Shown in pieces: positions 33,039 to 63,847 of a DNA stretch of 64,000 nucleotides; the stretch's first letter is position 1; every line of letters begins with the position of its first letter. Made by a program: the position numbers and the translations under genes. Source of the stretch: Dehalococcoidia bacterium. GTDB taxonomy: Bacteria; Chloroflexota; Dehalococcoidia; Lucifugimonadales; G963668185. The DNA is taken from assembly GCA_963668185.1 (NCBI GenBank), contig OY764162.1, forward strand, positions 530,800 to 594,799. The letters are read 5' to 3'. The notes below the pieces were generated by a model that was given only the letters and a program-made list of their open reading frames with translations, did not search any database and was not told the DNA's origin.

Positions 33039-34214
33039 ATGACATCCGCAACCTATCGAAAGCGCCGCTCCCATGGCAGGACGGTGAATTGCGTGGGCGG
33101 CTATCAGGCCTACGTGCCGGACGCGCTCCCGCCGCCCATCGCATGGGACGAAGAACTGATCCTCGGCCTTTCGTCTGCCGATAGGGCCATGGGCGTTCTT
33201 GCGGGCGAAGGGAGGCGGTTGCCCAATCCGCGCCTGCTGATCAGGCCGTTCGCCCGCAAGGAGGCCGTTCTGTCCAGCCGCATAGAGGGAACTCAAACTA
33301 CGCTTGGGGAGTTGATGGCCGCCGAGGCCCAGGGATCCATCGACCGAAGCGCGGCCGACGTGCAAGAGGTGGGCAACTATGCCGCTGCCCTGGAGTACAG
33401 CTTGGAGCGCCTTGAGACGCTGCCGTTATCCCTGCGCCTGGTGCGCGAGATCCACGAGCGCCTCATGCGTGGAGCCCGGGGAGAGGCGGCCGCGCCCGGG
33501 GAGTTCAGGCGCAGCCAGAATTGGATCGGGCCGCCCGGGTGCAGCCTGAACGATGCGACCTACGTTCCGCCGCCGCCGCCGGAGTTGATGGGCTGCCTCG
33601 GCGCCTGGGAGCGGTATCTCTACGACGATGCTCTCCCGCCCCTCGCTCACGCGGCGCTCATCCACGCGCAGTTCGAGGCCATCCACCCGTTTCTCGACGG
33701 CAACGGCCGGGTCGGACGCCTGCTCATCACGCTGCTGTTCATCGCGCGGGAGCTCGTACCGTCGCCGTTGCTCTATCTGAGCGCGTATTTTGAAGCCTCG
33801 CGGGATGAGTACTACGCACGGCTTCTCGGCGTAACGCAGAGGGGGGAGTGGGAAGAGTGGCTGCTCTACTTCCTCAACGGGGTTGCCCTTCAGGCAGAGG
33901 ACGCGGCGGACCGGATTCGGCGCATGGACGACCTGATCGCGGGTTGGAAGCTGAGACTCTCGGGAAGCCGCTCCCGGCTCCCCGAGAGAGTAATCGATCT
34001 CTTCGCTGAGAATCCCTTCCGGACCGTCGGCGGCGTAGCCGCAACGCTCGGCGTGGCTTTCACGACGGCGCAGCGGGCGATAGACCGCCTTGAGGATGCG
34101 GGCGTCATCCGGCGCGTCGGGGACGCCAGGCGCAATCGGCTCTACCGGGCCGATGCCGTTCTCCAGGTGCTGGAGGCGAGCGCCTCGCCCTCCCCTCCAA
34201 CCCGTTCGCCCTGA
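33039..34214 (+). CDS. Fic family protein (Fic_N + Fic + C-terminal wHTH-like)
   Basis: Canonical Fic motif HPFLDGNGRVGR. An N-terminal inhibitory-helix-like motif SSRIEG ((S/T)xxxE(G/N)) is also present. Confidence 0.9.
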   Translation: MTSATYRKRRSHGRTVNCVGGYQAYVPDALPPPIAWDEELILGLSSADRAMGVLAGEGRRLPNPRLLIRPFARKEAVLSSRIEGTQTTLGELMAAEAQGSIDRSAADVQEVGNYAAALEYSLERLETLPLSLRLVREIHERLMRGARGEAAAPGEFRRSQNWIGPPGCSLNDATYVPPPPPELMGCLGAWERYLYDDALPPLAHAALIHAQFEAIHPFLDGNGRVGRLLITLLFIARELVPSPLLYLSAYFEASRDEYYARLLGVTQRGEWEEWLLYFLNGVALQAEDAADRIRRMDDLIAGWKLRLSGSRSRLPERVIDLFAENPFRTVGGVAATLGVAFTTAQRAIDRLEDAGVIRRVGDARRNRLYRADAVLQVLEASASPSPPTRSP

Positions 34215-34271
34215 GCCTGTCGAAGGGCAGCCCCGAACGAAACTCCGTTCGCCCTGAGCCTGTCGAAGGGC
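34202..34271 (+). repeat. Two tandem copies (43-bp period) of the 27-mer CCGTTCGCCCTGAGCCTGTCGAAGGGC
   Basis: Exact copies lie at 34202-34228 and 34245-34271. The fic stop codon (34212-34214) lies inside copy 1. The pair fills the 65-bp gap between convergent genes. Confidence 0.8.
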
Positions 34272-34279
34272 CTCGCCCC

Positions 34280-35818
34280 TCAACTCTCCACGATCGGCTG
34301 CGCCACGATCCACAGGCTCGTCGCCGTGTACAGCAGCATGAGCAGCAACATCGGGTACTGGCTGCGCATCGCGCCCGCGTGCGTCGCGAACCTGCGCAGC
34401 GCCGTCACGTGCGCCAGGTACACCGCGATCACGTGCCCCAGCACGATCGACACAATCGACAGGAACCACTCGAACTTCGTCGTAAGCAACGGATAGATCG
34501 TGTAGTCTGCGAGGCCGATCAGGTCCCATCCCCAACCGAACGGGTCCGACGCCAGCGGCAGTATCGTCTGGCCCTGGATGAGCAGCAGCACCAGGAAGTG
34601 CGCCACGTGGTAGGCCAGCGCGATCGGTATCAGCGAGTACAGGAACAGCTTGCAGACTTCCAGCGTCCCGATCGTCTCTCCGGACAGCCGGCCCATTGCC
34701 CAGCAAAAGCAGTAGTACATGCCGAAGAACGCTATCGGGAACATCAGCAGCCCGAACGTCCCCACCGCCTCAGGCGCGGCGTCCCCCAGGAACTCCAGCC
34801 GCGGCTGCGCGATGCTCCGGAACTCGTTCCACGGCCCCGTGGCCGCAAAGCCGTCGTATGTGACCGTCGAGAGCAGCAGGACGACGAACGCCATTTCCCC
34901 CAGGCTGATCGCGCCGTTGCGGGCAAGGCCGACGGCGAACGGCCTGAGGTTGATCTGGCGGCGGGCCGGCGGCGCTAGCTCGTAGCACTCGTGGCAGTTG
35001 ACGCAGTCGTCGGGCGTGTCGATGCAATCGCCGTCGCACGTCCCGCACGGCTCCAGGTCCAGCGTGCGCAGCTCGGTCGGCGCGAACCGCGCAAAGTAGC
35101 CGAACAGCCTCGTGAACGCCTCGCCCCGGCGCAGCCACTCGTGGCGTCCGAACAGCAGCATCCCGCCCCACGTTATCAGCGAGTACGCGATTATCATCGT
35201 TGCCAGCGCCCGCGGCTCGCCCGCCCTCGCGAAGTTGTTCTCTACCCACGCGAACAGCCAGAACAGGACCAGCGCCGGCCAGACGTCCAGCCACGGCGGG
35301 CACCGGAACATGGGAGAGCCGCCGATGCCCAGCAGCCTTTCGGCCCACCTGAACGTGATGTTCCACGGGTTGACCGCCTTCCAGACGTCTCCGAAGAACG
35401 CCGACGCGAACACCATGCCCGTCCACCAGACGATCCACACGAACGTCGGCGTGAAGTTCGAAAAGACCAGGTTCTCGCCGAACAGCGACGTGGCCAGCAC
35501 GAGACCGAAGACGCCTATCGACAGCGCCTGGACGACCGCGGACGTCGCCCCGCTCACGAGTAACGGCCCGAGAACGCGCATCGAGAGCAGGTCAGCGCGC
35601 CAGTACCTGGCCCCCGTCAACCTCCTCTCCTGTACGAAGACGCCGATCATCACGAACGACACCGCCACGGCGGCCGCGGAGCCAATCAGGAAGTAGTTCA
35701 GCGGGACGGGAAGCGCGTACCGCCCTCCGATGCCGTGCGCGAACGCCGGAACGGCGGCCCACGCCAGCGCGCCCGCGAGCAGGAGCGCCGCCGCCGGCCT
35801 GGCGAGGCTGCGAATCAA
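34280..35818 (-). CDS. Polytopic membrane protein with Cys-rich loop (uncharacterised)
   Basis: The proposed TTG start at 35818 overlaps the upstream stop (TTGA). It gives a signal peptide MIRSLARPAAALLLAGALAWAAVPAFA followed by HG. There are more than 10 hydrophobic segments and a loop EPCGTCDGDCIDTPDDCVNCHEC (about 34981-35055). The track ORF extends to 36007 through an Arg-rich, non-protein-like region. Confidence 0.6.
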   Translation of the reverse strand: MIRSLARPAAALLLAGALAWAAVPAFAHGIGGRYALPVPLNYFLIGSAAAVAVSFVMIGVFVQERRLTGARYWRADLLSMRVLGPLLVSGATSAVVQALSIGVFGLVLATSLFGENLVFSNFTPTFVWIVWWTGMVFASAFFGDVWKAVNPWNITFRWAERLLGIGGSPMFRCPPWLDVWPALVLFWLFAWVENNFARAGEPRALATMIIAYSLITWGGMLLFGRHEWLRRGEAFTRLFGYFARFAPTELRTLDLEPCGTCDGDCIDTPDDCVNCHECYELAPPARRQINLRPFAVGLARNGAISLGEMAFVVLLLSTVTYDGFAATGPWNEFRSIAQPRLEFLGDAAPEAVGTFGLLMFPIAFFGMYYCFCWAMGRLSGETIGTLEVCKLFLYSLIPIALAYHVAHFLVLLLIQGQTILPLASDPFGWGWDLIGLADYTIYPLLTTKFEWFLSIVSIVLGHVIAVYLAHVTALRRFATHAGAMRSQYPMLLLMLLYTATSLWIVAQPIVES

Positions 35819-36399
35819 CGCCCCGACCGCGCCTGCGCCCGCCGCGCCGCGAAGTACCTGCGCATGCTGAGGCCGACGATCGTCAGGAGCGCGAGCGCGA
35901 GGCCGAGGGTCAGCAGGCCGGGCCACGGGCTGGTCCTGGCGACGTCGAGCACGAACTCGGCGGTCGCCTCCCCGGGCGGAGCGTCCACCTCCACCACGAA
36001 CGTCCACGCCCCTTCGCGGTCCACCTCCACGTCCAGGTCATAGTCTTTCGGTGTGTCGGGGAGCGTGAAAGCGGGCAGGGGCCCGATCTCCGCGTCGGAG
36101 GACCCCGGCCCGCGGCCGGAGACCGTGACGCCGGCCCCCGTGATGGCTTCGTCAGAGCCCGCCTCCGCGAGTCTTACCGTGAGGTGAAGCGGGCCAACCC
36201 TCGGATCGGGCGGAGCGGTGCCCAGCGAGACCTCGTAGGGGCCGGCCGTGCTGCTGACGTACTTCGTGACGCGCCCGTTTCCCTCGGCCTCGCCCGCCCA
36301 GCCCCCGCTCGAAGCGACGAACGCGAATGCCGAGAGCGCCAGCGCCCAAACCGCGATGAGCGATGCGACGGTCATCCAACCCGCCCGCTCGCGTACCAT
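35815..36399 (-). CDS. Membrane-anchored Ig-like (YtkA/FixH-like) domain protein
   Basis: I chose ATG 36399 (MVRERAGWMTVASLIAVWALALSAFAFV signal/anchor). The beta-rich body (YEVSLGTAPPDPRVGPLHLTVRL...GAGVTVSG) is followed by a C-terminal TM (WPGLLTLGLALALLTIVGL). The family call is tentative. Confidence 0.5.
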   Translation of the reverse strand: MVRERAGWMTVASLIAVWALALSAFAFVASSGGWAGEAEGNGRVTKYVSSTAGPYEVSLGTAPPDPRVGPLHLTVRLAEAGSDEAITGAGVTVSGRGPGSSDAEIGPLPAFTLPDTPKDYDLDVEVDREGAWTFVVEVDAPPGEATAEFVLDVARTSPWPGLLTLGLALALLTIVGLSMRRYFAARRAQARSGR

Positions 36400-36495: not shown

Positions 36496-36642
36496 CCGTT
36501 CGCCCTGATCCCGTCGAAGGGCCTTACGCAAGACACCGCACGAGACCTCCGGCGTAGGGGCCGCTCGCGAGCGGCCCATGCCTCGCGCTCCCAATGCCGC
36601 TCGCCCTCACCAACCCCGTTCGCCCTGATCCCGTCGAAGGGC
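36496..36642 (+). repeat. Two copies (120-bp period) of the 27-mer variant CCGTTCGCCCTGATCCCGTCGAAGGGC
   Basis: Copies lie at 36496-36522 and 36616-36642, in the same orientation as the 34.2-kb copies. Confidence 0.8.
36558..36577. repeat. Perfect 20-bp palindrome GGGCCGCTCGCGAGCGGCCC
   Basis: The first half is the exact reverse complement of the second. It lies between the two 27-mer copies in the divergent intergenic region. Confidence 0.8.
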
Positions 36643-36728: not shown

Positions 36729-38420
36729 ATGCGCTACACGCGACACATCCTGTTGGCGTTCCTCGGGCCGGCTATCGCGTCCTGCGCGCTGCTGATCGTT
36801 GTCGCCGCATGCGGCACGAATGGCGACGGCGCGGCGGTCCGGGACTCGGTTGTCACTCCTCCAACAACCGGAGGACAGACGGTGACGGAGGTGGCGCCGG
36901 TAGCGCCGGTAGTTCTCTTTCACGGTGATACCGTGGTCGAGCAGAAGATCCTGGACAGCGACGTGATCGTCAGGGCGACGATGGCCTCTTCCACTTCGGA
37001 GGTCTTCCACAATACCGTCGATTACAGGGCGAAGCTGAAGTTCAGGCTCAACGTCAGCGAGTACCTGAAGGGCAGCGGCCCGACCAGCATCGTAGCAGTG
37101 TGGGTTGACGGGACCGGGTACGATACTCGTGCGAAGGCCGAGGCCAGAAAGGCGCGCATTCTCGCCTCGCGCGACACCCAATGGGACAACCGGGAGGCGG
37201 TCTTCTTTCTGCGGAATGGAGCGGCTGACTGGGAAGCGTCCGAGTATGCCCTGGGGCTGGGGCATGAGTTTAAGCTGGGGCATGAGTATGGCGACGATCT
37301 CTACAGCCTGCACAGCGAGAGGAACAGGAGGTGGCTGCCCGCCGCGGCGAGCGCGGCGGGCGCATCGAGCGTTGACGCCCGGGAGTACCTGCTCGACGTG
37401 CCGCATACGGGAGGGGCCGTCGGGGCGAGCTCCGGTACAACCGCGCCTACCATCAGCCTTGGCAACTTGAAGAAGCGTATCAAAGAAGTCACGGCGGAGT
37501 ACAACGGCGGAGACGGGTCGGAGGCCTACAAGGAGTGCGTCAAAGGAAAATATGCATTCGAGCGCATGGTCCGCCACTCTCAGCTGGAGGGTGACGACTA
37601 CCTCAGCAACGACTATTACCATCACTTGAAACACGCGCTTGCGTCCGGTCAGCCCGCCAACTCCGTGCTGCATCAGAGGGAGAACCACGGCATCTATCCT
37701 GATCAAAAGGCGAGGACGTGGCTGGAGGGCGGGGACGCCGCGCTGTTCAGCGTCGTGCAGGGGACATCGACTCCTGTTGACTATGACGAAGACGGAGTGC
37801 TCACTGCCGGGGCGGATGGAATCTATTTCACCGAGACATTCAGGACGGTTCGTCCGCTGCCTGCGGGCGTGTACAGGTCAAATCGCAAGGAAGTGTGGGC
37901 CCCTTACTTTGCATGTAACTACGCCATGAGCCTCAAATGGACGGTCACCGTGACGGCTCCAGCGGGCACGGTGCACGAGGCGTTCTTCGACCCGGCGTCC
38001 ACGTTCCTGGGCGTCGGCGCGAGCGGCGGCGCGGGCGTGATCTCCCCGGCGTCCTTCAACGTCGGCGGCGTGACCACCACGATCACGCGGATAGTAGTGT
38101 CGTTCGGCAGCATGGTCACCATGCAGATATCGCCGTCGGTCTCGCTGTCCGGCAAGCACATGGAGTTCATCAAGGTGGACGGCACCGTGGCGGCAAGGCT
38201 GTCGTTCGATAAAGGGGACCTCAAGGGCGGCATCGGCATCGGCGGGGCCGGCACCGACACGGGCACCAGCACGGCGGAGGCGGCAGTGTCGGCGGCGGCG
38301 CACGCGGAGATAGCGGCGGCTCTCGCCGAAGCGCAGGCCACGGGAAGCAAGATGTACTTCTGGTTCGTGTCCAGTTCGCCGTGGAAGGCGGGGGACAAGC
38401 TGATGCTGCGCATACGGTAG
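36729..38420 (+). CDS. Uncharacterised lipoprotein, paralog 1
   Basis: RBS GGAGGC. Signal peptide plus lipobox (LLIVVAACGT). The 563-aa protein is homologous to the next gene along its whole length, and the last ~160 aa are nearly identical. Confidence 0.7.
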   Translation: MRYTRHILLAFLGPAIASCALLIVVAACGTNGDGAAVRDSVVTPPTTGGQTVTEVAPVAPVVLFHGDTVVEQKILDSDVIVRATMASSTSEVFHNTVDYRAKLKFRLNVSEYLKGSGPTSIVAVWVDGTGYDTRAKAEARKARILASRDTQWDNREAVFFLRNGAADWEASEYALGLGHEFKLGHEYGDDLYSLHSERNRRWLPAAASAAGASSVDAREYLLDVPHTGGAVGASSGTTAPTISLGNLKKRIKEVTAEYNGGDGSEAYKECVKGKYAFERMVRHSQLEGDDYLSNDYYHHLKHALASGQPANSVLHQRENHGIYPDQKARTWLEGGDAALFSVVQGTSTPVDYDEDGVLTAGADGIYFTETFRTVRPLPAGVYRSNRKEVWAPYFACNYAMSLKWTVTVTAPAGTVHEAFFDPASTFLGVGASGGAGVISPASFNVGGVTTTITRIVVSFGSMVTMQISPSVSLSGKHMEFIKVDGTVAARLSFDKGDLKGGIGIGGAGTDTGTSTAEAAVSAAAHAEIAAALAEAQATGSKMYFWFVSSSPWKAGDKLMLRIR

Positions 38421-38647
38421 GCGCGCCCGCACTGCCATGCCGCGCGCCCCTCAAGCTGTCATTCCGAGTCCCCCGAGGAATCTTGGACTTCCCGCATGTC
38501 GCCAACCCTAATCCCCGGCAAGCCGCGCATTCGGCCAAGGCAGGACGCTTTGGGCAACGGTGCGTCTTGGATTCCCTTCAAGGGACTCAGGGCAGGCTCT
38601 CTCTCGCTTCGCTCGATCGGAATGACAGGGGACGCGAGACAACAGCA

Positions 38648-40390
38648 ATGAAACGTCGCGGTTACATCGCGGGATTACTGCATGCCAGTCTGCTGTTGGT
38701 CGCGTGCTGCGCGCTGTTAGTGGCCGCCGCCTCATGCGGCACAGCCGTTGATGTCCCTATAGTCCCCACACCCACGACTGAGGTCGGACACAGTGCAGCT
38801 TCAGACAACACGCCGACTCCCACGGCTACGGCTGAGGTTGGGGACGACGGTGCAGTTGCCAGCGATGCGATTGTTCCTACGCCAACTCCCGAGGTTCAAG
38901 TCCAGGCTCATAGGCCGGCCTCGTTCGTAGTCTTTGACGTACCTGCCTCACTCGAGGAACAGATTTACTATTCGGACGTGATCGTGCGCGCAACGCTGAA
39001 GTCCGCGACTTCAACGACGGAGACGGTCGACAGCGGCGCTTCAGCAACGTATCGGCCGGTACACGAGCTCAGGTTCATCATCCACGAGTATCTGAAGGGC
39101 AGCGGGCCGTCTGAGGCGGTGGTAGTTGCTGCGCGTGGAGATGAGTACGCGACAGTCGCAGAAGCGCACAAGAAGGCAGATTGGGCCATGACCCATCGAA
39201 ACACCACATGGGACAGCCGCCAGGGAGTGCTATTCATGGTGAAGCTTCCCAGTTCCTATAACCCTGCCAGCGCAGCGAGTGCGGCGACTACGACAGCGTT
39301 CGGACTACTCAGAGGCTCTATGGGCGAATCCTTACCGTGGTGGGGTCATACTGTCGATACACTCAGCCGTGGGTGGTTGCCAGCGGGGGATGCTACGGGA
39401 GGCGTAAGCTCGGACGGCGGCGCGTCTGGCGCGGCCAGCGTGTCGTTCATAGAGGACGGGTCAAAGTCGCCTTACCCCACGGTCACTCTGGGTCAACTTC
39501 GTACCAAGATATCGGAGATGGTAGCTACTCTGAAGGCAGGAGAGGGGATCGATGGGTACGACGAGTGCATCCGCCGCAAGATTTATCGTGAGCGGCTGAA
39601 TCGCGCAAGACCATGGACACCGCTCCAAGATACGGTGTCCATGCCCTCAGGTTCAGCGACAGGAACGGAGGTCTTCAGGGATCGGAAAAGCGCTGGGGAG
39701 CCGAAGTACATTCGATACTATGTGACCGGCCCGGACAAGGACTACTTCCAATCACCTAACATTGATGATGACTCAGATCCGTCTAACGGGTACTTCCGCA
39801 CACTTTCCAACACTCGTCCCCTGCCTGCCGGTTCGTACGCCATCAAAAGACACCAGTGGCATTACAGTTACTTTCCTTGCAACTACAAGGCTGGTGACTC
39901 CAACTACGATGAATGGACGGTGACTGTCACCGCCCCGCCCGGCACGGTGCACGAGGCGTTCTTCGACCCGGCGTCCACGTTCCTGGGCGTCGGCGCGAGC
40001 GGCGGCGCGGGCGTGATCTCCCCGGCGTCGTTCAACGTCGGCGGCGCGACCACCACGATCACGCGGATAATAGTGTCGTTCGGCAGCATGGTCTCCATGC
40101 AGATATCGCCGTCCGTGTCGCTGTCCGGCAAGCACGTCGAGTTCATCAAGGTGGACGGCACAGTGGCGGCAAGGCTGTCGTTCGACGCGGGGGACCTCAA
40201 GGGCGGCATCGGCATCGGCGGGGCCGGCTCCGACACCGGTACCAGCACGGCGGCGGTGTCGGAGGAGGCGCAAGCTGAGATAGCGGCGGCGATGTCAGAG
40301 GCGCAGGCCACGGGAAGCAAGATGTACTTCTGGTTCGTGTCCAGCGCCCCGTGGCAGGCCGGGGATAAGCTGATGCTGCGGATACGGTAG
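38648..40390 (+). CDS. Uncharacterised lipoprotein, paralog 2
   Basis: I chose ATG 38648 (MKRRGYIAGLLHASLLLVACCALLVAAASCGT, lipobox) over the track start 38381. It shares islands SDVIVRAT, EYLKGSGP and RPLPAG with paralog 1 and has a near-identical C-terminal module. Confidence 0.7.
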   Translation: MKRRGYIAGLLHASLLLVACCALLVAAASCGTAVDVPIVPTPTTEVGHSAASDNTPTPTATAEVGDDGAVASDAIVPTPTPEVQVQAHRPASFVVFDVPASLEEQIYYSDVIVRATLKSATSTTETVDSGASATYRPVHELRFIIHEYLKGSGPSEAVVVAARGDEYATVAEAHKKADWAMTHRNTTWDSRQGVLFMVKLPSSYNPASAASAATTTAFGLLRGSMGESLPWWGHTVDTLSRGWLPAGDATGGVSSDGGASGAASVSFIEDGSKSPYPTVTLGQLRTKISEMVATLKAGEGIDGYDECIRRKIYRERLNRARPWTPLQDTVSMPSGSATGTEVFRDRKSAGEPKYIRYYVTGPDKDYFQSPNIDDDSDPSNGYFRTLSNTRPLPAGSYAIKRHQWHYSYFPCNYKAGDSNYDEWTVTVTAPPGTVHEAFFDPASTFLGVGASGGAGVISPASFNVGGATTTITRIIVSFGSMVSMQISPSVSLSGKHVEFIKVDGTVAARLSFDAGDLKGGIGIGGAGSDTGTSTAAVSEEAQAEIAAAMSEAQATGSKMYFWFVSSAPWQAGDKLMLRIR

Positions 40391-41834: not shown

Positions 41835-41925
41835 CCGTTCGCCCTGGCCCCTTCCCCAGTCTGCTGGGGAAGGTTGGGATGGGGCTCTCCGGCGTGATCC
41901 GTTCGCCCCGAGCCTGTCGAAGGGC
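41835..41925 (+). repeat. Composite intergenic repeat: truncated 27-mer, 10-bp-stem hairpin, 27-mer
   Basis: CCGTTCGCCCTG (41835-41846); hairpin CCTTCCCCAG-TCTG-CTGGGGAAGG (41850-41873); CCGTTCGCCCCGAGCCTGTCGAAGGGC (41899-41925). The same architecture occurs at 63738-63847. Confidence 0.7.
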
Positions 41926-63737: not shown

Positions 63738-63847
63738 CCGTTCACCCTGATCCCGTCGAAGGGCCTCCGCTTGTCCCCTCCCCAGCAGACTGGGGAAGGG
63801 ACGGATGGGGTCTCCCCCCTCCGTTCGCCCTGAGCCTGTCGAAGGGC
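63738..63847 (+). repeat. Composite intergenic repeat: 27-mer, hairpin, 27-mer
   Basis: CCGTTCACCCTGATCCCGTCGAAGGGC (63738-63764); hairpin CCCTCCCCAG-CAGA-CTGGGGAAGGG (63776-63800); CCGTTCGCCCTGAGCCTGTCGAAGGGC (63821-63847, exact). Confidence 0.75.

Follow-up and report, generated by a model that had tools for sequence, protein, structure and literature searches.

A coupled pair of membrane-protein genes in Dehalococcoidia, probably linked to copper, with a large protein related to polyferredoxins

The gene pair and its flanking repeats

In the window, i.e. the whole 64-kb stretch of Dehalococcoidia DNA analyzed here, two overlapping minus-strand genes encode a small tethered protein and a large polytopic one, and copies of the same short repeat lie on both sides. 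What do these two proteins do together, and where do they come from? The features on which the first part of the answer is built are the following.

35815..36399, minus strand: small gene, an open reading frame of 194 aa from ATG 36399
34280..35818, minus strand: large gene, an open reading frame of 512 aa with a TTG start
35815..35818, minus strand: TTGA overlap, with the TTG start of the large gene over the TGA stop of the small gene
34202..34270, minus strand: two copies of a dispersed 26-nt repeat, downstream of the operon, CCCTTCGACAGGCTCAGGGCGAACGG
36496..36641, minus strand: two copies of the same dispersed repeat, upstream of the operon, CCCTTCGACGGGATCAGGGCGAACGG

Both reading frames of the preliminary description were thus found, and the TTGA overlap is a predicted translational coupling of the two genes. 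An identical overlap is present in L003, one of the closest relatives of this locus, and in L004, another of them, the start codon of the large gene is an ATG lying 3 nt further on. For the large protein, the public gene call (P0426) gives the start already proposed, with 100% identity across the same 512 aa. The call for the small protein (P0121), also 100% identical, takes the second ATG, at 36375, as its start, and is 186 aa long. The small gene lies immediately upstream of the large one in several relatives. Among 83 loci, each from a different species carrying the large gene, the pair is found together in 71, always on the same strand, as would be expected of the two-gene module first described, and in 13 loci it forms a minimal unit. 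In the window, its immediate neighbours encode a Fic protein, a K+ channel, a Rieske oxygenase and two unannotated paralogues.

The repeats had been taken to bracket the operon like a cassette. Pairs of the same repeat do lie on both flanks, with a 26-nt core in four exact copies (34202-34227, 34245-34270, 36496-36521 and 36616-36641) and none in shuffled sequence. A repeat-bounded cassette or mobile unit is nevertheless ruled out, because the copies are dispersed (three more in the window, at 41899, 63738 and 63821, and others scattered at unrelated places in 11 loci of SAR202 relatives), because they occur inside homologous genes (inserted in-frame in L065 and L060), and because no copy lies within 6 kb of this module in L003 and L004. 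The downstream repeat region folds into hairpins (z -2.7), and folding of the upstream repeats is no better than that of shuffled sequence. No Rfam family matches the repeats, and no terminator- or promoter-like sites that would account for them were found.

Architecture and ancestry of the two proteins

From its N-terminus, the small protein consists of a signal peptide or anchor, then a beta-sandwich (aa 47-154) exposed to the periplasm, a C-terminal transmembrane helix (aa 159-193) and an Arg-rich tail. Its AF2 model (pLDDT 83 overall, ~90 for residues 47-154) shows an N-terminal helix, then the beta-sandwich, then a C-terminal helix, so that the signal or anchor, Ig-like body and C-terminal helix proposed earlier were recovered. 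The label "YtkA/FixH-like" that came with them has no sequence support; only the general Ig-like fold and the membrane anchor agree. The protein matches no Pfam model at E<=1 (CopC, DUF1775/PF07987, YtkA PF13115 and FixH PF05751 included) and no NCBIfam model, a relative matches no YtkA/FixH model at E<=0.1, and comparison with the true YtkA domain of neighbouring CopCD fusions gives an hhalign probability of 0.5%.

With Foldseek, the top PDB match of the modelled fold is the copper protein CrdA (9ll2, E 1.9e-6, TM 0.77 on target), followed by HftA/Tp34 and CopC (5icu, E 4.8e-3, TM 0.60). CrdA also ranks first in a sequence-profile search, weakly (E 0.09, 18% identity). The best structural match of the predicted fold is thus CrdA/CopC-like. 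H. pylori CrdA is a CopC/PcoC-like periplasmic copper protein and bears a Met-rich Cu(I) motif (PMC9182242); the small protein shares its fold, and differs in lacking this motif and in having transmembrane segments at both ends. Neither the His/Asp Cu(II) ligands of CopC nor a Met-rich stretch was found in the mature domain, which has a single His and no Cys. Residues conserved in the family are N/H41-G42, Y55, H72, D127 and W132. The mature N-terminus is predicted to be Asn in the window protein, not the His that stands with Glu and Trp among the conserved ligands of YcnI/DUF1775 proteins, and His is found there in 14 of 73 relatives. This residue covaries with His72: it is Asn in 58 sequences, and the 11 sequences that have Ile for His at 72 are all among those with an N-terminal His, as expected of one shared metal site.

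For the large protein, the relevant features are as follows.

35738..35818, minus strand: predicted Sec signal peptide, aa 1-27 (...AVPAFA), a hydrophobic core followed by A-x-A
35735..35737, minus strand: His28 codon, predicted first mature residue
35240..35458, minus strand: region homologous to the first Fer4_5/CX3CP unit, with N121 (35456-35458) and E193 (35240-35242), from alignment A5
34985..35047, minus strand: six-Cys loop, aa 258-278, predicted cytoplasmic, between TM5 and TM6, CGTCDGDCIDTPDDCVNCHEC
34409..34600, minus strand: TM8, periplasmic loop and TM9, with near-invariant H407, S424-D425-P426-F-G-x-G-W, H462 and H470
34598-34600, 34544-34546, 34433-34435 and 34409-34411, minus strand: codons of H407, D425, H462 and H470, respectively

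The preliminary description placed this protein in no named family. Indeed, it matches no Pfam (E<=1) or NCBIfam model, none of its more than 1783 homologues has a Pfam domain, no similar fold was found in the PDB (best E 0.42, TM about 0.1), and literature searches returned no description of the family. The family is nonetheless large, with 6270 representatives of 50%-identity clusters at E<=1e-3, chiefly from Dehalococcoidia/SAR202. In the AF2 model (pLDDT 81, pTM 0.81), the protein is predicted to have 10 transmembrane helices, with both termini out after cleavage of the signal peptide. Its loop charges obey the positive-inside rule, and the C-out topology fits the C-terminal fusions seen in the family, to extracytoplasmic Cu/Zn-SOD (SodC), YtkA and SBP5-like binding domains.

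The N-terminal His proposed from an AFA↓HG site proved to be the most conserved feature of the family: in an alignment of 271 members, 255 sequences have a complete N-terminus and 250 of these carry H28, in each case preceded by (A/V)-x-(A/G), and the A-x-A↓H site is also found in Sulfitobacter and Ralstonia. It heads a conserved arm, H-G-x-G-x-R-Y-D-L-P-V-P-L, which runs into TM1 and is probably flexible, its pLDDT being below 50. Mycobacterial homologues, however, keep the His and have no signal peptide, so that a true N-terminal His "brace" is not universal and the His need not be N-terminal. In the same alignment, H407 is kept in 261 sequences, D425 in 258, H462 in 261 and H470 in 256, and D322 and E193 likewise reach at least 256 of 271. 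In the charge-based topology, the conserved His, Asp and Glu residues are found either in the membrane's outer half or along a single helix.

That the protein is not an orphan appears from its full-length homology (27-32% identity) to an uncharacterised sister family, annotated "polyferredoxin / 4Fe-4S binding / YHS domain-containing". One sister protein, L083:758-2266, aligns over ~490 aa (BLAST E 5e-55) and matches Fer4_5 above cut-off. Among the sister proteins tested, 10/10 match the NapH/MauN model TIGR02163 (at E ~1e-8, far below the curated cut-off) and 9/10 match Fer4_5; none of 8 members of the window family matches either model. Both families have ~10 transmembrane helices, and N121, E193, the SDPFGxGW loop and H407 are invariant in both. 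The NapH core, which begins with the first CX3CP unit and extends as far as the ferredoxin domain, is represented in the window protein by residues ~143-300, and the Fer4_5 match on the paralogue L083:758-2266 spans the residues aligned to the first-unit region. There, G-D-V-W-K-A-V-N150-P-W stands opposite G-K-x-W-C-x-x-C-P-W. The window protein has no C-X3-C-P motif, with W-K-A-V-N-P-W and L-R-R-G-E-A-F for W-C-x-x-C-P-W and F-C-R-Y-G-C. At the exact position of the His28 arm, the sister family has an HMBD or YHS metal-binding domain. Direct hhalign comparison with E. coli NapH and YccM is not significant, and direct membership in either family was rejected; only the sister-family bridge works. 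Through this bridge, the alignments indicate that the large protein belongs, as a degenerate branch, to the polyferredoxin superfamily of NapH/MauN/CcoG type. We take the Fer4_5 domain to be common to CcoG and the sister family. Homology of the small protein to small proteins encoded upstream of sister-family genes (L083, D. ficus) is suggestive only (hhalign probability 17%).

The same alignments bear on the six-Cys loop, C258xxC261xxxC265...C272xxC275xxC278. It aligns with two ferredoxin-type motifs of the sister family, C-x2-C-x4-C-x9-CP and CxxCxxCxxxCP, and has lost both "CP" cysteines as well as an 18-aa spacer, with A282-P283 for C-P, so that six Cys are left and the two complete [4Fe-4S] motifs (eight Cys) are absent. 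The resemblance to Fe-S motifs noticed at the outset is therefore explained by descent, the loop being the remnant of a two-cluster ferredoxin domain, yet a dispensable one: of 271 members, 150 retain the full set of six Cys and 84 have none, with the loop lost in about a third of the family. A c-type cytochrome, as C272-V-N-C275-H276 might suggest, is ruled out, since Tyr occupies position 276 in 133 sequences, against 16 with His, and the loop is predicted to be cytoplasmic. A weak PDB match to a Geobacter cytochrome c (E 0.003) is due to Cys spacing alone.

Gene neighbourhoods and known systems

A metal-handling or redox role had been no more than suggested at first. Gene neighbourhoods and domain fusions strongly back metal handling, and point specifically to copper. 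In the 83 loci, genes on the same strand as the large gene encode a Cupredoxin_1 lipoprotein (58 loci), a CopC-CopD-YtkA-cytochrome c fusion (29 loci) and AhpC/Redoxin-type thioredoxins, and the operon of a family member often includes a real CopC-CopD fusion. In Sulfitobacter, the divergently transcribed neighbour of the homologue (K3753_RS20360) bears a PCuAC chaperone domain. The Haloferax mediterranei homologue (HFX_RS18050) is preceded by a gene for a P19/PF10634-like protein and followed by one for a heavy-metal P-type ATPase. Three mycobacteria share the order sigC, cupredoxin-like lipoprotein, large-protein homologue, and in two of them this set adjoins copper membrane monooxygenase genes. 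SigC counters copper starvation in M. tuberculosis (PMC7924339), and the part consulted of a review on monooxygenase regulation in M. chubuense NBB4 discusses sigC and does not mention the two mycobacterial genes, MYCCH_RS28725/28730 in that strain (PMC8784404). Some family members adjoin branched-chain amino-acid-type (HAAT) ABC transporters, with no copper gene called nearby; these still have a cupredoxin-like gene directly upstream or a PCuAC neighbour. In the 64-kb window itself, no other copper-related gene was found.

Several known systems resemble the pair in part. Compared to NapH/MauN, the window family has an added signal peptide and His as well as the invariant H470, shows K-A-V-N-P-W and G-E-A-F instead of the C-x-x-C-P motifs, and keeps 6/8 ferredoxin Cys or none. 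In ccoGHIS, as here, a copper-tied polytopic protein of Fer4_5 type (CcoG/FixG) goes with a small single-pass or Ig-like membrane protein (CcoH/FixH), and CcoG with CcoH acts in copper supply to cuproenzymes (PMC7558416). The window differs in that its large protein has no Fer4_5, Fer4_18 or FixG_C match and no intact [4Fe-4S] motif, its small protein has no FixH match, the small gene comes before the large one, and cbb3 oxidase genes are not nearby.

CopC-CopD and YcnI-YcnJ likewise place a periplasmic or tethered beta-sandwich copper binder beside a polytopic membrane protein, and the small protein shares the layout of YcnI, namely signal peptide, beta-sandwich and C-terminal transmembrane helix (PMC8424229). 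Here, however, the predicted N-terminal His is on the polytopic protein, and not only on the soluble partner. In the histidine-brace proteins (CopC, YcnI, LPMO, PmoB), mature residue 1 is a His whose amine and imidazole bind copper, and a predicted A-x-A↓H site is what the large protein has. A CopD-like permease by homology was ruled out, as CopD (PF05425) gives no Pfam match at E<=1 and hhalign against 18 CopC-CopD fusions from the operons gives a probability of 0.4%. EfeO-EfeU and P19-FTR1 are metal permeases paired with periplasmic partners. The likeness to them is an analogy of layout only, with a Cupredoxin_1 or P19-like gene directly upstream of a polytopic protein; EfeU/FTR1 and the large protein have no homology, and the latter has no REXXE motif. 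The kinds of partner seen in the family correspond to those of known metal permeases (CopC-CopD, EfeO-EfeU, P19-FTR1).

A possible copper relay and its alternatives

We consider it probable that the pair is linked to copper, and are much more tentative on the mechanism, a relay or permease being somewhat less likely than not. Our best explanation, offered with corresponding reserve, is a two-protein extracytoplasmic copper-handling module acting as a periplasm-facing relay or permease. The small protein would be exported, tethered by its C-terminal helix, and would present its CopC/CrdA-like beta-sandwich to the periplasmic face. The large protein, a 10-helix descendant of Fe-S membrane proteins of NapH/CcoG type, has lost both CX3CP motifs and a complete ferredoxin domain and gained a predicted cleavable signal peptide, whose removal would make His28 the end of a flexible arm before TM1. 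First, the tethered partner would bind copper, a part that may be played in other genomes by a cupredoxin-like lipoprotein, a CopC domain, PCuAC or a P19-like protein. The partner would then hand the copper to the His28 arm, and the arm would deliver it to a periplasm-facing pocket formed by H407, D425, E193, D322 and N121. Finally, copper might pass down TM9 (H462, then H470) to the cytoplasmic six-Cys knuckle, making the protein a permease or a relay. The data show gene structure, conservation, homology, a predicted topology and the associations in genomes and fusions; cleavage, copper binding, hand-off and direction of movement are what we infer from them. In favour of this reading are the copper-related neighbours and fusions, the set of conserved His, Asp and Glu residues, the HMBD or YHS domain that the sister family has in place of the His arm, and, in the small protein, the CrdA-like fold and the covariation of the N-terminal residue with His72.

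Several observations speak against a copper relay or permease. The ancestry of the large protein is redox and not transport, no solved structure resembles it, its mycobacterial homologues lack a signal peptide, the small protein of the window starts with a predicted Asn and has in its mature domain a single His, no Cys and no Met-rich site, no other copper gene accompanies the pair in the window, and some members sit beside ABC transporters. Moreover, many SAR202 operons already encode CopCD, so that a second importer could be redundant.

Ancestry also underlies the main alternative, which we regard as unlikely, namely that the large protein faces the periplasm as a cupric reductase or redox relay, converting Cu(II) to Cu(I). 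It would have kept the quinol-interacting membrane core of its NapH/CcoG-type ancestors, its substrate would be Cu(II) on the His arm, the CopC domain, the cupredoxin or the small protein, the Cu(I) produced would be used by CopD or cuproenzymes, and a metal cluster feeding in cytoplasmic electrons could persist on the six-Cys remnant of the window subfamily. The homology to a sister family matching NapH/MauN and Fer4_5 argues for this, as do the location of one sampled sister protein in a redox operon (molybdopterin oxidoreductase/ferredoxin), the redox partners brought by SAR202 operons (cytochrome c fused to CopCD, cupredoxin, thioredoxin-like proteins) and the strict conservation of the six Cys in over half of the aligned members. 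CcoG is itself a cupric reductase, with two [4Fe-4S] clusters (PMC7558416). In the window protein, however, neither the two CX3CP motifs nor the two "CP" cysteines that complete the clusters survive, the Cys loop is gone from 84/271 members, no haem or flavin motif is evident and the CxxCH of the window is not conserved, while the SBP5-like fusions and the permease-type set of partners fit transport better.

It is more doubtful still that the module serves another metal (iron, nickel or zinc), or assists more generally in the assembly or chaperoning of extracytoplasmic metalloproteins, its copper neighbours reflecting shared regulation. The cupredoxin partner does match Cupredoxin_1, the family of the N-terminal domain of EfeO, which acts in iron uptake, and that of haloarchaea matches PF10634, the "Fe2+ transport protein" family. 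SBP family 5, to which one fusion domain is similar, includes nickel and metallophore binders, and the nickel permeases HupE/UreJ have an N-terminal His after their signal peptide. Against this, at least six copper-specific types recur across phyla (CopC-CopD, PCuAC, Cu/Zn-SOD, CuMMO genes, the sigC context and the CrdA-like fold), and the loci examined yielded no gene specific for iron, nickel or zinc, such as FTR1, NikABCDE or ZnuABC. Lastly, it is very unlikely that the large protein is a decayed, cofactor-less NapH-like anchor without a metal role, e.g. a substrate-uptake scaffold, next to an unrelated tethered Ig-like protein: the HAAT-type neighbours and SBP-like fusions of some members, and the lack of copper genes called near them or elsewhere in the window, would fit, but the His/Asp/Glu set and the A-x-A↓H site are extremely conserved across more than 6000 sequence clusters, the ABC-adjacent versions retain their cupredoxin-like or PCuAC neighbours, and 13 loci keep the pair as a minimal unit.

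Returning to the copper relay or permease, how copper enters bacteria and is loaded onto extracytoplasmic and membrane cuproenzymes is still poorly understood, and the large-protein family comprises thousands of sequence clusters with neither a Pfam/NCBIfam model nor a structural match. It is near-universal in the SAR202/Dehalococcoidia operons examined, SAR202 being a very abundant deep-ocean lineage, and is also found in haloarchaea, roseobacters and, by copper monooxygenase genes, in hydrocarbon-degrading mycobacteria. As cultured carriers exist, genetics is feasible. A bolder proposal, to which we give a rather low probability, is that the large protein founds a new class of integral-membrane copper proteins, Fe-S-less descendants of the NapH/CcoG type in which the processed His28, H407, D425, H462 and H470 form a membrane-embedded site, in an importer or in a cofactor-light, quinol-linked periplasmic cupric reductase. 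If so, SAR202 would rely on it as the chief partner of CopCD in acquiring copper, mycobacteria would use it to supply their copper monooxygenases, and in the window subfamily the six remaining Cys might be the site of a Cu(I)-thiolate or an unusual three-Cys-ligated cluster rather than [4Fe-4S]. The family is a testable candidate for a new component of copper trafficking, and a clear example of what appears to be an Fe-S redox scaffold repurposed after cluster loss.

The gene pair and its two products

The module is a coupled gene pair of two overlapping open reading frames:

36399..35815, minus strand: small gene, ORF of 194 aa, TGA stop overlapping the TTG start of the large gene
35818..34280, minus strand: large gene, ORF of 512 aa, TTG start

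The TTGA junction is identical in the closest relative (locus L003), and in a second relative (L004) the start is an ATG 3 nt later. A public gene call (P0426) is 100% identical to the large protein across the same 512 residues. The public call for the small protein (P0121, 186 aa) begins at the second in-frame ATG, at 36375; this alternative start leaves the layout of the protein unchanged. Neither protein matched a Pfam-A or NCBIfam model at E≤1, and the sole match in a PDB sequence search was a weak one of Cys pattern. The family profile matched nothing in the PDB.

Homologues of the large protein are numerous: more than 1783 in a 90%-clustered collection, every one unnamed or ‘hypothetical’ and none with a Pfam domain; 6270 representatives at E≤1e-3, of which 1435 reach E≤1e-30, in a profile search of a 50%-clustered library; and at least 584 matches in a scan of one genome per species, the best 80 of which come nearly all from Dehalococcoidia/SAR202 MAGs, apart from isolated hits to Trueperaceae, Rokubacteria and others. 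Conservation was counted on a 271-sequence alignment, with a subset of 255 N-terminally complete members. A His directly follows the signal peptide in 250 of these 255, and the preceding pattern is always (A/V)-x-(A/G). Near-invariant residues, numbered as in the window protein, are H407 (261/271), H462 (261), H470 (256), D425 (258), D322 (263), E193 (257) and N121 (262). The six-Cys loop is intact in 150 of the 271 sequences and Cys-free in 84. The C-V-N-C-H of the window protein was considered as a haem-c site and rejected, because its terminal His position is occupied by Tyr in 133 sequences and by His in only 16.

AlphaFold2 produced a confident all-helical model of the large protein (pLDDT 81, pTM 0.81), with flexibility in the arm (residues 24-37) and in part of the Cys loop; Foldseek found nothing similar among solved structures (best E 0.42, TM about 0.1). 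Loop charges on the model helices obey the positive-inside rule, and the topology predicted on this basis has ten TM helices, with both ends of the mature protein outside and the Cys loop cytoplasmic. Natural C-terminal fusions in the family (Cu/Zn superoxide dismutase, a YtkA domain, an SBP-family-5-like domain) agree with the C-out orientation, since all three modules are extracytoplasmic.

AlphaFold2 modelled the small protein (pLDDT 83) as a beta-sandwich (residues 47-154) preceded by an N-terminal helix and followed by a C-terminal TM helix. Among solved folds it best matches CrdA of H. pylori (E 1.9e-6, TM 0.77), a copper protein that is CopC/PcoC-like (PMC9182242) and is also the top sequence-profile match, though a weak one; the copper-binding proteins HftA/Tp34 and CopC rank lower among the fold matches. 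YcnI is organised in the same way, from signal peptide through beta-sandwich to C-terminal TM helix (PMC8424229). The YtkA/FixH label used in the preliminary description found no support: YtkA, FixH, CopC and DUF1775 models did not match the small protein, and comparing its profile with the real YtkA domain in neighbouring CopCD fusions gave a negative result. Among 73 relatives, the predicted A-x-A cleavage site is followed by Asn-Gly (58) or His-Gly (14), and position 72 is His in 60; the 11 relatives with Ile72 are all among the His-starting sequences. This covariation would fit one metal site formed from the N-terminus and residue 72.

Neighbouring genes and dispersed repeats

Divergent from the module lie two tandem paralogous genes on the plus strand (36729-38420 and 38381-40390; 563 and 669 aa). 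Their products have N-terminal signal or lipoprotein-like sequences, no Pfam match, and C-terminal ~190 aa that are nearly identical (...TVTVTAPxGTVHEAFFDPASTFLGVGASGGAGVISPASFNVGG...KMYFWFVSSxPWxAGDKLMLRIR). Convergent with the module is a Fic/DOC-family gene (33039-34214, plus strand) whose product has a C-terminal winged-helix domain; at its 3' end the gene runs into the first repeat copy (34202-34227).

The core of this 26-nt repeat, CCCTTCGACRGGMTCAGGGCGAACGG, occurs seven times in the window, always on the minus strand, and four copies flank the operon:

34202-34270, minus strand: two copies of the 26-nt repeat core
36496-36641, minus strand: two copies of the 26-nt repeat core
41899-41924, minus strand: one copy of the 26-nt repeat core
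63738-63846, minus strand: two copies of the 26-nt repeat core
L065:6801-6826: repeat copy in another locus
L060:6442-6467: repeat copy in another locus
L047: four repeat copies in another locus

The operon had been likened to a cassette bounded by these repeats. Variants are scattered at unrelated positions in 11 loci of SAR202 relatives, the homologous large gene contains in-frame insertions of the repeat in L060 and, within the Cys loop, in L065, and L003 and L004 have the same module with no repeat around it. The cassette was therefore rejected, and the repeat is a dispersed REP/MITE-like element, not a boundary. No Rfam match, terminator-like site or unusual folding of single copies was found. 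The repeat is dispersed over many Dehalococcoidia genomes; its in-frame copies in two other species fall in cytoplasmic loops and encode ...GPSTGSGRTE... and ...PFAMSLSKG.... These insertions suggest a mobile element of the REP/MITE kind, tolerated by coding loops.

Relationship of the large protein to a Fe-S protein family

That the large protein belongs to no named family held in part: its family is unnamed, uncharacterised and without a model match, but relatives exist, linked through a sister family. In the locus of P0292, an SBP-fused homologue, a 502-aa paralogue is encoded two genes upstream; it is ~30% identical full-length to the SAR202 proteins (E 5e-55), and its Pfam Fer4_5 match exceeds the cut-off. 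The two branches of the superfamily occur together in one operon at L083:222-6208 (GCA_975963795.1, contig CDLTKO010000091.1), in the order 178-aa Ig-like TM-anchored protein starting A|H, 502-aa Fe-S-bearing sister paralogue, 400-aa unannotated exported protein, and 920-aa window-family member fused to an SBP-family-5-like domain.

The sister family is widespread: E≤0.001 was reached by 484 proteins of the scored candidates, and the annotations are ‘polyferredoxin’, ‘4Fe-4S binding protein’ or ‘YHS domain-containing protein’. All 10 tested members match NCBIfam NapH/MauN over model positions about 70-254 of 255, with E about 1e-8 and scores far below the membership cut-off, and 9 of the 10 match Fer4_5; none of eight tested members of the window's family matches either model.

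Motifs of the two families in the joint alignment.
First motif: sister family G-K-x-W-C-x-x-C-P-W; window's family G-N/D-V-W-x-x-x-N-P-W
Second motif: sister family F-C-R-Y-G-C; window's family W-L-R-x-G-E-A-F
Ferredoxin motifs: sister family C-x2-C-x4-C-x9-C-P and C-x2-C-x2-C-x3-C-P; window's family C-x2-C-x3-C ... C-x2-C-x2-C-x3-A-P

Compared with the sister family, the window's family has lost an 18-residue spacer and the two Cys-Pro residues that complete the clusters. The Cys loop is what remains of a ferredoxin domain for two clusters, carried by a scaffold of NapH/CcoG type that is stripped of its redox hallmarks, so that the Fe-S resemblance first noticed was right as to origin. Direct profile comparison of the family with E. 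coli NapH or YccM was not significant, the top alignments landing on the equivalent second-motif region, and the large protein showed no similarity to CopD.

A molybdopterin-oxidoreductase/ferredoxin operon encodes one sampled sister protein, a setting that suits a NapH-like membrane redox subunit. Many others carry a signal peptide and HMBD domain, or an anchor and YHS domain, right before TM1, which is where the conserved His arm stands in the window's family; this shared position argues that the scaffold would repeatedly have acquired a periplasm-exposed metal-binding element there. On Deinococcus ficus plasmid pDFI1 (L086:6069-8350, DFI_RS15940/15945), the gene of a sister ‘4Fe-4S binding protein’ is translationally coupled to that of a 308-aa protein. 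The latter has a C-terminal TM helix and a long low-complexity insert rich in His, and its C-terminal part weakly resembles the window's small protein.

Copper proteins around the module and its possible role

ORFs were called and clustered in 82 related loci and the window (n=83). The small and large genes do co-occur across genomes, a small-protein homologue being present on the large-gene strand in 71/83 loci. The same strand carries a Cupredoxin_1-domain lipoprotein (58/83, usually immediately upstream), a His-rich 138-aa protein (44/83), a CopC-CopD-YtkA-cytochrome c fusion (29/83, immediately upstream) and AhpC/Redoxin-type proteins. Typically the genes run from the His-rich protein through the small protein, cupredoxin, (thioredoxin) and CopCD-cytochrome c to the large protein. 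The minimal small-large form occurs in the window and 12 other loci, and no other operon member was found within the 64-kb window. The conserved 138-aa protein that opens the SAR202 operon in those 44 loci (cluster c5, L001-L082; e.g. L009:1068-1484) is membrane-anchored, has no Pfam match, is absent from the window and bears the His-rich motif DHHFAERQPYHAH...HRHDY..AHAHP.

Copper genes also accompany homologues outside Chloroflexota. On three mycobacterial plasmids, sigC and a cupredoxin-like lipoprotein gene precede the homologue, and in M. dioxanotrophicus and M. chubuense NBB4 this set adjoins copper membrane monooxygenase (hmoCAB-type) genes:

L089:3718-5621, M. dioxanotrophicus (BTO20_RS39795/RS38385): cupredoxin-like lipoprotein gene and large-protein homologue, 4-nt overlap
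L091:4796-6591, M. chubuense NBB4 (MYCCH_RS28730/28725): cupredoxin-like lipoprotein gene and large-protein homologue, 4-nt overlap

SigC counteracts copper starvation in M. tuberculosis (PMC7924339); the passages on sigC in a review of NBB4 monooxygenase regulation do not mention the two genes (PMC8784404). A further cultured mycobacterial carrier is M. vanbaalenii JOB5 (QQA43_RS32180). In Haloferax mediterranei (HFX_RS18050) the order is P19/PF10634-like protein, small protein, homologue and heavy-metal P-type ATPase, and the Sulfitobacter homologue (K3753_RS20360) has a divergent neighbour with a PCuAC copper-chaperone domain. Some SBP-fused members and the Sulfitobacter gene adjoin branched-chain amino-acid-type ABC transporters; in the SBP-fused loci L084 and L085, a cupredoxin-like gene is still directly upstream. 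The Sulfitobacter and Ralstonia homologues retain the signal peptide and A-x-A|H. Those of mycobacteria have no signal peptide, and their retained ‘L/F-A-H-G’ is preceded by just six to nine residues. Judging from these sequences, the conserved His would be essential but not always N-terminal.

The family is recurrently associated with at least six kinds of copper proteins. The preliminary description proved largely correct, and its metal-handling inference was upheld and sharpened to copper. The conserved His/Asp/Glu set of the 10-TM protein probably faces the periplasm, and the small partner is predicted to be an exported, membrane-tethered beta-sandwich. We tentatively prefer a relay or permease, in which copper held by the tethered partner would be handed to the His arm of the large protein, would enter the H407/D425/E193/D322 pocket, and would continue by way of H462 and H470 in the direction of the Cys knuckle in the cytoplasm. 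CopC-CopD, EfeO-EfeU and P19-FTR1 pairs offer an analogy for this mechanism. The main rival, which we hold to be rather unlikely, is a periplasm-facing cupric reductase that would have kept the ancestral chemistry and would supply Cu(I) to CopD or cuproenzymes, much as CcoG does at the cytoplasmic face (PMC7558416). Service to another metal seems improbable, and a metal-independent role more improbable still. The membrane protein family is large, linked to copper and of environmental importance; it has neither annotation nor a structure, and cultured carriers exist.
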